This document shows positions 396-42,452 of a stretch of DNA of 64,000 bases, piece after piece. The translations under genes and the position numbers were made by a program. The DNA is from Polaribacter sp. (GTDB lineage: Bacteria; Bacteroidota; Bacteroidia; Flavobacteriales; Flavobacteriaceae). Location: the NCBI GenBank assembly GCA_965656305.1, contig CBFHKA010000041.1:41340-105339 (forward strand), in the 5' to 3' direction. How positions within the stretch are numbered: the first letter of the stretch is position 1; each line of letters starts with the position of its first letter. The notes beneath the pieces are model-generated. The model had not been told where the DNA came from, did not search any database, and saw nothing but the letters and a program-made list of their open reading frames with translations.

Positions 396-464
396 TGTCA
401 TTACGAACGTAGTGAAGTAATCTTTTAATTTATAGAGAGATTGCTTCGTAAACTCGCAATGACA
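396..464. repeat. Bipartite palindromic REP-like element (GTCATT...AATCT family)
   Basis: tgtcattacga..gaagtaatct (396-423) and agattgcttc..tcgcaatgaca (438-464) are inverted arms with 10/11 and 9/10 matches. Confidence 0.85.
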
Positions 465-919: not shown

Positions 920-993
920 TGTCTTTACGAGGAAAAATGACGAAGTAAACTTTTTATTATTAAATAGATTACTTCATTTCATTCGTAATGACA
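920..993. repeat. Bipartite palindromic REP-like element upstream of rpiB
   Basis: tgtctttacga..gaagtaaact and agattacttc..tcgtaatgaca; same family as 396-464. Confidence 0.8.
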
Positions 994-2944: not shown

Positions 2945-5245
2945 ATGACAAGAAAGAAAAAAAAGATATTTAAAAAGAAAGGAAAAGTCATCAAAGATTT
3001 AACTAGAAATATATTTAAAATATTAAACGAAGACAGTAATAAGTTTTATAATTACAAACAAATTGCTGCAAAATTAAAAGTTTCTGATACTGATGGAAAA
3101 AATCAGATTATCAAAAAACTAGCAGAACTAACTGCTACTAAAAAAATTAAAGAAATAGATAGAGGTAAGTTTCAAATTAATGAAGATCGTAAATATTCTT
3201 TAGGAACCTTAGATATTACATCTAATGGTAATGGATATTTTATGTCTGATGATTATGAAAACGATATTTTTATACCTAATATAAATCTAGGAAAAGGTTT
3301 ACATGGAGATGTTGTAAGAGCTTATGTTTATCAACGTAAAAGAAGTAGAAAATTAGAAGCTGATGTTGTTGAAGTTTTAGAACGCGCTAAAACAGAATTT
3401 GTAGGGGTTTTACAGAAAAGTAAAAATTTTGGATTTGTAATTCCTGATAACAACAAAATGTATGCAGATATTTTTATTTCAGAAAATAAAATGAATGGTG
3501 CAGAACATGGAGATAAAGTACAAGCAACCATTTCTGATTGGCCAGAAAATTCTAAAAATCCATTTGGAAAAATTACTACAGTTTTAGGAAAACCAGGAGA
3601 TCATAATACAGAAATGCATTCTATTTTATTAGAATACGATTTACCTTACGAATTTGAACCAGAAGTAGAAAAAGAAGCAGAATCTTTACCTATAGAAATT
3701 ACTGAATCAGAAATTGCTAAACGTAGAGATATGAGAGGCGATTTAACATTTACCATAGATCCAAAAGATGCAAAAGATTTTGATGATGCATTATCATTCA
3801 CAAAATTAGAAAACGGAAATTATGAAGTAGGAATTCATATTGCAGATGTATCTCATTATTTACAACCAAAAACAATTCTAGATGATGAAGCTTATGACAG
3901 AGCAACATCAGTGTATTTAGTTGATAGAGTAGTACCAATGTTACCAGAAATGCTTTCTAATGGAGTCTGTTCTTTAAGACCAAATGAAGAAAAATTAACT
4001 TTTTCCGCAGTTTTTGAAATCAACGAAAAAGCGCAAATAGTAGGAGAGTGGTTTGGTAGAACAGTTACCTATTCAGATCAACGTTTTGCATATGAAGAAG
4101 CACAATATTTGATTGAGGAAAATAGAGTAGATAAAAAAGATAAGAATCAAGATGATAAAAAGTCTGTCATTTCTAGTGAATTTTCGAAGAATCAGAAAAT
4201 TAGTATCGAGAAATCTTCATCTTTAAAATGTGTAATTCCTGCTAATGTTTCTATTACAGACAAGGAATATGAAGTAAAACCTGAAGTTGTAGAAGCTACT
4301 TTAAAGCTAGATGAATTGGCTAAAATTCTTCGTAAAAAAAGAATGAAACAAGGTGCAATTTCTTTTGATAGAGTAGAGGTGAAGTTCAATTTAGATGAAG
4401 AAGCAAATCCTGTTGGAGTATTCTTTAAAACATCACAAGATGCAAATAAATTAATTGAAGAATTTATGTTATTAGCTAATAGAAAAGTAGCAGAATTTAT
4501 TGGAAGTCATAAAGGAAAACCATCTAATAAAACGTTTATTTACAGAGTGCATGATGAACCTGATATTGAAAAATTAGCTTCTTTACAAAACATCATTAGT
4601 AAATTTGGGTATAAAATAAATACAGATACAAAAGAATCTACATCAGAATCTTTAAATCAGCTTTTAAATGATGTAAATGGTAAAGCAGAATCTAATATGA
4701 TTGAGACATTAGCAATTCGTTCCATGTCTAAAGCAGTATATACCACTCAAAATATTGGGCATTATGGATTGGCTTTTGATTATTACAGCCATTTTACATC
4801 ACCTATTAGACGTTATCCAGATGTAATGACACATAGATTACTTCAACATTATTTAGATGGTGGAGAAACGCCAAAAGCAGAACTTTATGAAGAAAAGTGT
4901 AAACATTCTTCAAAAAGAGAAGAATTAGCTTCAAAAGCAGAAAGATCATCCATAAAATATATGCAAGTAAAATACATGCAAGATCATAAAGATGAAGTTT
5001 TTGATGGTGTAATTACTGGGGTTACTGAATGGGGAATTTATGTAGAAATTTCTTCAAATAAATGTGAAGGAATGGTTAGAATTAGAGATATAAAAAGCGA
5101 TTATTATATTTTTGATGAAAAACAATATGCTATTGTTGGGCAATCTACCAAACATATTTATCAACTTGGAGATGATGTTCAAGTACAAGTAAAAAAGACA
5201 GATTTAGAACGTAAACATTTAGATTTTAATTTAATCGAAGACTAA
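2945..5245 (+). CDS. rnr: Ribonuclease R (RNB family), carrying an in-frame repeat-derived insertion
   Basis: FTIDPKDAKDFDDALS, HFTSPIRRYPD, C-terminal S1 domain; ATG 2945 (MTRKKKK) preferred over track start 2909. Confidence 0.97.
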   Translation: MTRKKKKIFKKKGKVIKDLTRNIFKILNEDSNKFYNYKQIAAKLKVSDTDGKNQIIKKLAELTATKKIKEIDRGKFQINEDRKYSLGTLDITSNGNGYFMSDDYENDIFIPNINLGKGLHGDVVRAYVYQRKRSRKLEADVVEVLERAKTEFVGVLQKSKNFGFVIPDNNKMYADIFISENKMNGAEHGDKVQATISDWPENSKNPFGKITTVLGKPGDHNTEMHSILLEYDLPYEFEPEVEKEAESLPIEITESEIAKRRDMRGDLTFTIDPKDAKDFDDALSFTKLENGNYEVGIHIADVSHYLQPKTILDDEAYDRATSVYLVDRVVPMLPEMLSNGVCSLRPNEEKLTFSAVFEINEKAQIVGEWFGRTVTYSDQRFAYEEAQYLIEENRVDKKDKNQDDKKSVISSEFSKNQKISIEKSSSLKCVIPANVSITDKEYEVKPEVVEATLKLDELAKILRKKRMKQGAISFDRVEVKFNLDEEANPVGVFFKTSQDANKLIEEFMLLANRKVAEFIGSHKGKPSNKTFIYRVHDEPDIEKLASLQNIISKFGYKINTDTKESTSESLNQLLNDVNGKAESNMIETLAIRSMSKAVYTTQNIGHYGLAFDYYSHFTSPIRRYPDVMTHRLLQHYLDGGETPKAELYEEKCKHSSKREELASKAERSSIKYMQVKYMQDHKDEVFDGVITGVTEWGIYVEISSNKCEGMVRIRDIKSDYYIFDEKQYAIVGQSTKHIYQLGDDVQVQVKKTDLERKHLDFNLIED
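4165..4216. repeat. Intragenic palindromic element (TGTCATTTC...GAGAAATCT) inside rnr
   Basis: tgtcatttctagtgaattttcgaagaatcagaaaattagtatcgagaaatct: outer stem atttctag/cgagaaat, inner stem aattttc/gaaaatt; same ends as the rc arm at 32528-32569. Confidence 0.75.
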
Positions 5246-32487: not shown

Positions 32488-32569
32488 TGTCATTGCGAAT
32501 GGAGTGAAGCAATCTCAATTTGTTATGAGATTTCTCAATCGTTCCTTCTTCACTCATTTCGAAATGACA
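32488..32569. repeat. Hybrid bipartite REP-like element
   Basis: Left arm tgtcattgcga..gaagcaatct; right arm rc tgtcatttcgaa..gagaaatct. Confidence 0.85.
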
Positions 32570-32582
32570 TTTGTGTTTTTTA

Positions 32583-42200: not shown

Positions 42201-42226
42201 TGTCATTCCTTTGAAAAAGGGAATTC
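42201..42226. repeat. TGTC-tagged REP-like hairpin
   Basis: tgtc-attcctt-tgaaa-aagggaat-tc just after the hmgA stop. Confidence 0.7.
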
Positions 42227-42263: not shown

Positions 42264-42332
42264 GCCATTTCGCGCTTTCCATTATATCTTTTTTTAAGAA
42301 AAATAAAAAAAGGATGCCATTTCAATCACGGC
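42264..42332 (+). ncRNA. Flavo-1-like structured RNA or repeat motif
   Basis: gcgctttccattatatctttttt...aaaaaaggatgccatttcaatcac resembles the Flavo-1 pattern (GCTTTCC.CTATATCTTTT..AAAAGGATG.CG.T.CAATC) as I recall it; not confirmed with a covariance model. Confidence 0.55.
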
Positions 42333-42452
42333 TAAACTAGTTTGCAGATTTAAGCGAAAAAGGAAACAAATGGCTTATTAATAATAAAAACCTGAAAGGT
42401 CTGCAAAAAAATAAAAAAAATTAAAGTACTCGTTATTCACCCAGATATGAGT

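Follow-up and report, generated by a model that had tools for sequence, protein, structure and literature searches.

How does a hairpin repeat come to lie inside the reading frame of a housekeeping nuclease without breaking it? The question is raised by a stretch of 64,000 nucleotides from a Polaribacter genome (2.94 Mb, 50 contigs, 29.5% G+C), hereafter called the window. It contains the gene of RNase R (rnr). The 766-residue open reading frame (ORF) matched B. subtilis RNase R (8cdu) at E 1.5e-141 in phmmer, and RNase R orthologues were present in 41 of the 41 relatives searched. A segment at window positions 4165-4216, TGTCATTTCTAGTGAATTTTCGAAGAATCAGAAAATTAGTATCGAGAAATCT, is in frame within this ORF and encodes SVISSEFSKNQKISIEKS, residues 407-424 of RNase R. 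An initial annotation had described it as a 52-bp palindromic repeat inserted in frame, and its position and frame were confirmed. Our analysis indicated that the segment is very probably a solo long copy of a family of Ssn-related motifs (SRM), which sits in frame in a variable loop of RNase R and has been tolerated there since it arrived in a Polaribacter ancestor. Feature coordinates are collected in Table 1.

Membership in a repeat family was tested with a covariance model (R1) made from 42 other genomic copies, with the rnr copy left out. R1 aligned with window 4163-4218 at 56.9 bits (E 1.4e-11) over model positions 1-54 of 54, which bore out the proposal that the segment belongs to a family. 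A whole-genome nhmmer search gave the rnr copy an E of 1.8e-8. Short-word BLAST of the segment against the genome returned many partial matches sharing one pattern, and the closest single copy (C6:34427-34478) was 84.6% identical over 52 ungapped bases (E 2.6e-4). The 42 other copies of this long module are 46-52 nt in length and read TGTCA(G/C/T)TTCGAGTGA, a variable hairpin, and TTGTATCGAGAA(C/G/A)T. Their alignment (A3) had conserved ends, TGTCAnTTCGAGTGA ... TTGTATCGAGAAnT, and two helices.

An AT-rich, low-complexity coding sequence might resemble such a repeat by chance. The surroundings of the segment are of low complexity, and the G+C content of the genome is low. A loose regular expression for the end motifs was rejected, as chance matches in genes were common (42 in long ORFs; 37 genome-wide in the reversed control), and in-gene copies were counted only if they had a family-like interior. 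Against chance stand the full-length match to a model that did not contain the rnr copy, the still higher R1 scores of orthologous long copies in other Polaribacter rnr genes (63 and 60 bits), and the indel relative to 20 congeners described below. The model match and the scores of the orthologous copies refuted chance resemblance, to which we give practically no credence.

The segment had been drawn as a nested hairpin. The two helices can be drawn in the rnr copy and they covary across the family, but the segment folded no better than shuffles. In the outer helix, the variable base that follows GTCA is paired with another variable base, which precedes the final T (GC 27, CG 7, UA 3, AU 2). 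In the inner helix, 6 of 7 pairs were changed on both sides across the long-module family. Over the whole long-module alignment, 93.5% of cells were paired and 8 pairs were changed on both sides; none of 500 shuffles reached the observed values. The inner-hairpin loop of the rnr copy, CGAAGAATCAG, agrees with the commonest loop of the family, GAAGAATGA. The RNA fold of the rnr segment was -6.5 kcal/mol (z +0.3 versus shuffles) and its DNA fold had a z of -0.6, indicating no excess stability; typical intergenic long modules were likewise not above shuffles, as RNA or as DNA. Fold energy was dropped as evidence for structure, since shuffles were equally stable. The evidence for the hairpin is family covariation, not energy. 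Because the hairpin is no more stable than shuffles, the suggestion that it matters in the rnr mRNA found no support.

The genome contains 46-48 long copies. Among 48 of them, the rnr copy is the only one inside a gene. Long-module counts in relatives ranged from 0 to 75 and did not closely track the nuclease gene that is described below. A scan that demanded complementary stem bases found 170 modules of all subfamilies, compared with 37 in the reversed-genome control, and the modules fall into several stem subfamilies.

Comparison with orthologues indicated that the segment is an insertion, as the initial annotation had supposed. The RNase R match of most of the 41 relatives split in two around query residues 393-430. 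The segment was missing from 20 of 24 orthologues of the same genus, which have shorter loops, and in other families of the order about 20 further residues were missing. At this loop, the sequence in other families and in Flavobacterium is shorter or unrelated. In Flavobacterium RNase R (P0043, P0045, P0054, P0072), this RNB-domain loop contains about 25 inserted residues of unrelated sequence (…LLLDDT.KKSLSKSSKTK…), so the loop takes inserts in other genera too.

Nothing in the solved RNase R structures 8cdu and 5xgu aligned to residues 393-440. In a model predicted by AlphaFold 2, residues 393-445 were coil between helices 383-392 and 446-468, with a predicted local distance difference test (pLDDT) score below 50 at 396-424. 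The catalytic DPKDAKDFDDA (residues 272-282) is distant in sequence from the insert. The model suggests that the insert lies in what is likely a permissive surface loop.

Three congeners had something at the rnr site. P. porphyrae (G023) reads SFISSEVEKS and P. cellanae (G017) reads VISSEIEKS; the DNA of both is the rnr module minus the 24-nt inner hairpin. In the third congener (G021), a degenerate IIPTEKQKS is present. Across the wider protein database, at least 8 Polaribacter RNase R clusters had the long form (…SSEFSK(N/D)(E/Q)KISIEKS) and four had the short form. A third group of alleles reads VIPTQAGIS, VIPNEERGGIS and similar. The DNA of two of these, CTGTCATTCCTACGCAAGCAGGAATCTC and CTGTCATTCCGAACGAGGAAAGAGGAGGAATCTC, has a TTCC/GGAA stem instead of the TTTC/GAAA stem, with boundaries, frame and flanks unchanged. 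Insert-bearing alleles share flanks that are missing elsewhere, namely the upstream K/D/N/Q-rich stretch and a downstream LKC/NC(T/V)IP. Since the long form is kept as a peptide in so many clusters, the insertion is neither recent nor private to the host genome.

Which repeats are these? Ssn-related motifs flank small GIY-YIG genes. The products of these genes, single-domain proteins of roughly 100 residues in the cd10448 clade, cut single-stranded DNA (ssDNA) adjoining the motif, on only one of the strands; the consensus of the Neisseria NTS is CGTCATTCCCGCGMAVGCGGGAATCYRG, and 2% of the NTS copies of N. meningitidis are intragenic (Chenal et al. 2025, Nat Commun, PMC11893778). The Neisseria repeat dRS3 has been grouped with Rickettsia palindromic elements RPE-4 and RPE-6 as "CGTC-tagged REPs" (repetitive extragenic palindromes), which have intragenic copies and lack a transposase (Di Nocera et al. 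2013, PMC3733652).

The Polaribacter genome has four GIY-YIG matches, two of these in small ORFs. The two small proteins have 97-103 residues, and GIY-YIG was their sole Pfam domain (67 and 46 bits); they matched no NCBIfam equivalog. One gene is intact (C26:149503-149802, about 100 residues, GIY-YIG only). It is flanked on both sides by inverted TGTCATTCCTGCGAAGGCAGGAATCTCAG-type modules, at 149470-149492 (+) and 149822-149844 (-). This module, of the TTCC subfamily, agrees with NTS at 25 of 28 positions. The second paralogue (C19:62791-63072, outside the window) is a pseudogene, with an in-frame TGA and a frameshift in an A run, and has long modules on both sides. Its orthologues are intact in G017 (C1:1680591-1680878, 84% identical) and G004, and one stop is present in G014. 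Each of the 4 Polaribacter loci of the second paralogue has long modules (50-71 bits) on either side, no more than 45 nt away. The long module is therefore the repeat of the second Ssn-like paralogue. The rnr copy shares with NTS only the GTCATT-stem ... stem-AATCT frame, and its interior is that of the long variant.

A REP-associated tyrosine transposase (RAYT) was rejected as the mobilising enzyme, as its gene is flanked by another repeat. The only Y1_Tnp gene of the genome (C31:75509-76066; match 75581-75805) is flanked on both sides by ACTCGTTACAAACGAGCACTA-type hairpins, not by GTCA modules. This RAYT-like gene, which is outside the window, looks like a separate REPtron-like unit.

Judged by sequence, the repeat family is SRM and belongs in one superfamily with the CGTC-tagged REPs and Rickettsia RPE-4/RPE-6. 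The initial annotation had likened the segment to Rickettsia palindromic elements, and the tie proved closer than claimed: RPE-4 and RPE-6 are CGTC-tagged REPs like Neisseria dRS3/NTS (PMC3733652), and the Polaribacter modules share the NTS architecture. On these grounds the analogy appears to be a family relationship, subject to the difference between the TGTC and CGTC tags.

The family also occurs in other coding sequences, as had been predicted from the rnr copy. About 10 further in-frame copies were found in housekeeping genes; the copy in MurB was verified against orthologues, and about 9 more are candidates. Short 26-nt TTTC modules were inside genes in 9 of 15 cases. Polaribacter MurB proteins of 341-343 residues have VISS(G/A/E)VEKS, and those of 335-336 residues do not. 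LeuRS was rejected as a third clean indel, because its SRM peptide is in a linker whose length changes by only 2 residues from species to species. None of the three forward frames of the short module is closed by a stop, yet frame 1, which reads VISSEVEKS, was used by 9 of 10 forward copies (binomial p about 4e-4, by our own arithmetic).

Some of the host proteins had further features, all outside the window. LeuRS (C29, the ORF with C29:11912-11936) contains an in-frame DUF559 (PF04480, Vsr-like endonuclease fold) at residues 313-408. It directly precedes the SRM peptide and the editing domain, and was present in all listed LeuRS matches (named Polaribacter, Tenacibaculum and Lutibacter). TopA (C38:39769-39837) has a whole 69-nt two-module element in frame, VIANNKGMKQSVNSKISLQGRNDK. 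Between the C-terminal zinc-finger repeats of TopA there is a second stretch that resembles an SRM (…GVKQSINNNEIASSKTHND…). In the C-terminal half of TilS (C41:257944-258184), two reverse short modules, DFSTSLETT and DFSTSLEMT, are separated by about 70 residues.

Four insert-bearing genomes were included in a maximum-likelihood RNase R tree for which the variable region had been masked. Several observations weigh against one insertion that has simply been tolerated since. The insert-bearing genomes did not form one clade and needed four changes; a single clade of insert-bearing species was ruled out by the rnr tree and the approximately unbiased (AU) test (p 9e-5). With one ancient insertion, several losses or exchanges must therefore be assumed. 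From species to species, the same rnr site is taken by different SRM subfamilies. The long copy is 94-98% identical among three species, compared with 85-87% for the rest of rnr, and this excess is not predicted by a purely neutral relic. The remaining points concern the identity of the family and the loop: the 5' tag of the family is TGTC (consensus cUGUCA), not CGTC, which occurs in a single genomic copy (C50:31971), and the AlphaFold 2 model is weak, with a mean pLDDT of 66.7. Three histories are conceivable: a single old insertion that was later lost in some lineages and remodelled in place, repeated hits, or an exchange of alleles.

A recombination patch in G017 was also considered. A sliding comparison did not clearly show one. 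The stretch after the rnr module was the fastest-evolving part of the gene in every pair compared, and in this stretch G017 was still nearest to G002. Insert-free Polaribacter alleles (L005, L006, L008 and others) are of two types, ENVTLSDDVQPYTMP and IET-KNNIIP, which are scattered over the gene tree; the longer type, which may be a decayed module, has 13 of 27 bases in common with the short consensus (hand count).

Repeated hits would mean that the loop was struck several times independently, each lineage gaining its own SRM at the same permissive position. The patchy distribution on the tree fits this, as does the placement of G017, which has the insert, as sister to insert-free G002 with support of 100/99. 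The different subfamilies at the site and the unrelated Flavobacterium insert in the same loop point the same way. However, independent hits do not readily give the flanks shared by insert-bearing alleles only (upstream DKNQD...K and the downstream motif) or boundaries and frame that agree to the base, and a target-site motif or duplication was not found at the rnr site. We consider this history unlikely.

Another explanation makes the rnr copy a live cassette: SRM copies at coding sites would be re-templated in place from copies elsewhere in the genome, through repair or gene conversion that an Ssn cut in the ssDNA hairpin may precede, so that they are kept near the consensus and their subfamily can switch. 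Four forms, with boundaries (CTGTCATT...AATCTC) and frame unchanged and with homologous flanks, occur at the rnr site: the long TTTC module, the short TTTC module and two near-consensus modules with the TTCC/GGAA stem. The long copy is in the top 0-9% of 52-nt windows for conservation. The LeuRS and E2 copies are identical to the consensus at 25 of 25 positions, including codons rare in this genome, and a near-consensus VISS(E/A)VEKS is present in LeuRS of both Polaribacter and Lutibacter. On the other side, neither a conversion tract nor a donor copy was demonstrated. The conserved termini are just 8-10 nt, which is short for homologous recombination, and protein-level selection plus recent allele spread could yield equal conservation. 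The flank of G017, nearest to its sister and free of a clear patch, does not favour re-templating either. We regard it as possible, on the doubtful side.

The conservation of the module also raises the question of function. The hairpin could regulate the rnr mRNA, through its stability, its processing or an autoregulatory action of RNase R, or the enzyme could gain a function from the 18-residue peptide. Retention of EFSK(N/D)(E/Q)KISIEKS across RNase R clusters and nucleotide conservation above the gene average are consistent with this. Yet the fold energy equals that of shuffles, close relatives manage without the insert or with a form 8 codons shorter, the loop is predicted to be disordered, and the same module is present in unrelated enzymes. 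A function of either kind is very unlikely.

We favour a tolerated insertion. SRM repeats would spread by an ssDNA-hairpin route involving the Ssn nuclease, and one would have inserted into rnr in the ancestor of part of the genus Polaribacter. The site is a length-variable, probably disordered part of the RNB domain between the two helices flanking the loop. The copy is read in the one frame that yields a hydrophilic, stop-free peptide (VISSE...EKS). Only insertions that are in frame, benign and in permissive loops would survive selection, and the rnr copy would have no function of its own. As the nuclease paralogue of the long module is a pseudogene here, the copy is probably inert in the host genome. 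The segment is a real RPE-like in-frame SRM insertion in RNase R. This kind of event is known. What is new is the lineage, together with the nested-hairpin variant that has a nuclease paralogue to itself, the bias towards one frame and the series of rnr alleles.

The Polaribacter modules resemble NTS in being oriented 20-50-nt hairpin repeats with a conserved 5' (C/T)GTCATT and 3' AATC, in their tens to hundreds of copies per genome, and in the small single-domain GIY-YIG gene with a repeat on both sides (SRM-ssn-SRM). They differ in the 5' tag, TGTC in place of CGTC, and in the 46-52-nt variant, whose loop contains a second, nested hairpin that covaries and which has a nuclease paralogue to itself. 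The host, a flavobacterium, is marine and free-living, and the short TTTC subfamily is mostly intragenic, unlike the 2% of NTS in N. meningitidis.

Rickettsia palindromic elements were reportedly described by Ogata and colleagues in 2000. Like RPE-4 and RPE-6, the Polaribacter modules are small palindromic repeats that sit in frame in housekeeping genes, add a short peptide, leave the protein unbroken and are missing from orthologues of relatives. A dedicated transposase of RPE-4 and RPE-6 was not known in 2013 (PMC3733652). The phylum and the lifestyle are different, and single modules of 26-52 nt encode 9-18 residues here, whereas RPE dimers encode 20-30.

REP/BIME (bacterial interspersed mosaic element) repeats with their RAYT enzymes (IS200/IS605-like Y1 transposases) are similar in that their hairpin repeats are dispersed and frequently form inverted pairs or clusters, that a small nuclease gene lies between its own repeats, and that ssDNA hairpins are presumably recognised. 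They differ from the Polaribacter modules, which have no GTAG tag; the only Y1_Tnp gene of the genome has a different repeat. Bacterial miniature inverted-repeat transposable elements (MITEs) can insert in frame, for example Correia, ERIC and cyanobacterial hairpin inserts. They too are short non-autonomous repeats able to sit inside ORFs. The rnr copy is instead one 52-56-nt module with no inverted partner downstream, not a 70-300-bp unit with terminal inverted repeats. No target-site duplication was found at the rnr site; none was sought for intergenic pairs such as 32489-32568.

Other modules of the family lie elsewhere in the window. The initial annotation had matched the segment to an intergenic copy, the reverse complement of 32528-32569. 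This copy is real, but it is a more distant relative (R1 17.3 bits, E 0.13 at 32526-32571). The intergenic pair at 32489-32568 bears GTCATT...AATGAC ends. No Rfam family covers the modules. The only Rfam match in the window was a Flavo-1 RNA (RF01705, 70.2 bits) at 42264-42337 (-), about 40 bases from the TTCC-type SRM at 42202-42224. Literature searches on the motif letters and on palindromic or in-frame repeats of Flavobacteriaceae found nothing specific.

Table 1. The rnr gene, its SRM module and related modules; positions are window coordinates, or host genes for copies elsewhere in the genome
Feature	Position	Strand	Remarks and basis
rnr (RNase R, 766 aa), host gene	2945..5245	+	ATG 2945, stop 5245; ORF list, phmmer, orthologues
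Low-complexity K/D/N/Q-rich stretch ENRVDKKDKNQDDK, directly upstream of the rnr module	4121..4162	+	Alignments; insert-bearing alleles only
Solo long SRM module, in frame, encodes S407-S424 (SVISSEFSKNQKISIEKS)	4163..4218	+	R1 covariance model
Outer helix 5' arm, ATTTC	4169..4173	+	Partner 4210-4214; family pair 8-58 covaries, rnr copy is the U-A version
Inner hairpin 5' arm, AATTTT	4179..4184	+	Partner 4196-4201; family covariation and model alignment
Inner hairpin 3' arm, AAAATT	4196..4201	+	Family covariation and model alignment
Outer helix 3' arm, GAAAT	4210..4214	+	Family covariation and model alignment
Two short SRM modules	397..463	+ (397-421), - (440-463)	Covarying-stem scan
Short SRM module, TTAC/GTAA stem	968..992	-	
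Intergenic composite of two short SRM modules, inverted	32489..32568	+ (32489-32513, TTGC stem), - (32530-32568, TTTC stem)	RNA fold z -4.1 and -4.6
Short SRM module, NTS-like TTCC/GGAA subfamily	42202..42224	+	
Short-module copies in genes	LeuRS, E2 acyltransferase linker, MurB, PolA, MobA-like protein, Fe-S oxidoreductase	forward	
Short-module copies in genes (DFSTSLEMT and DFSIYVEMT)	TilS (two), YicC	reverse	
TTGC-type copies in genes	PurL, TopA		

It was not until 2025 that Ssn nucleases and their hairpin repeats were described. The Polaribacter data tie the Rickettsia puzzle of palindromic elements in proteins to a candidate enzyme family. For annotation, peptides like VISSEVEKS, VIPTQAGIS or DFSTSLEMT in Bacteroidota proteins should be taken as repeat-derived. 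If coding-site copies are indeed re-templated in place, in-frame sites would record how Ssn-associated repeats get copied, for example by nuclease-started repair templated by another copy, and a housekeeping gene would give a dated, alignable frame for watching this copying. Polaribacter is a free-living, culturable genus that offers two nuclease paralogues with their own repeat types, about 10 in-frame copies in essential genes and the rnr allelic series. It also gives tests of cleavage, mobility and tolerance definite genes and substrates to work with.

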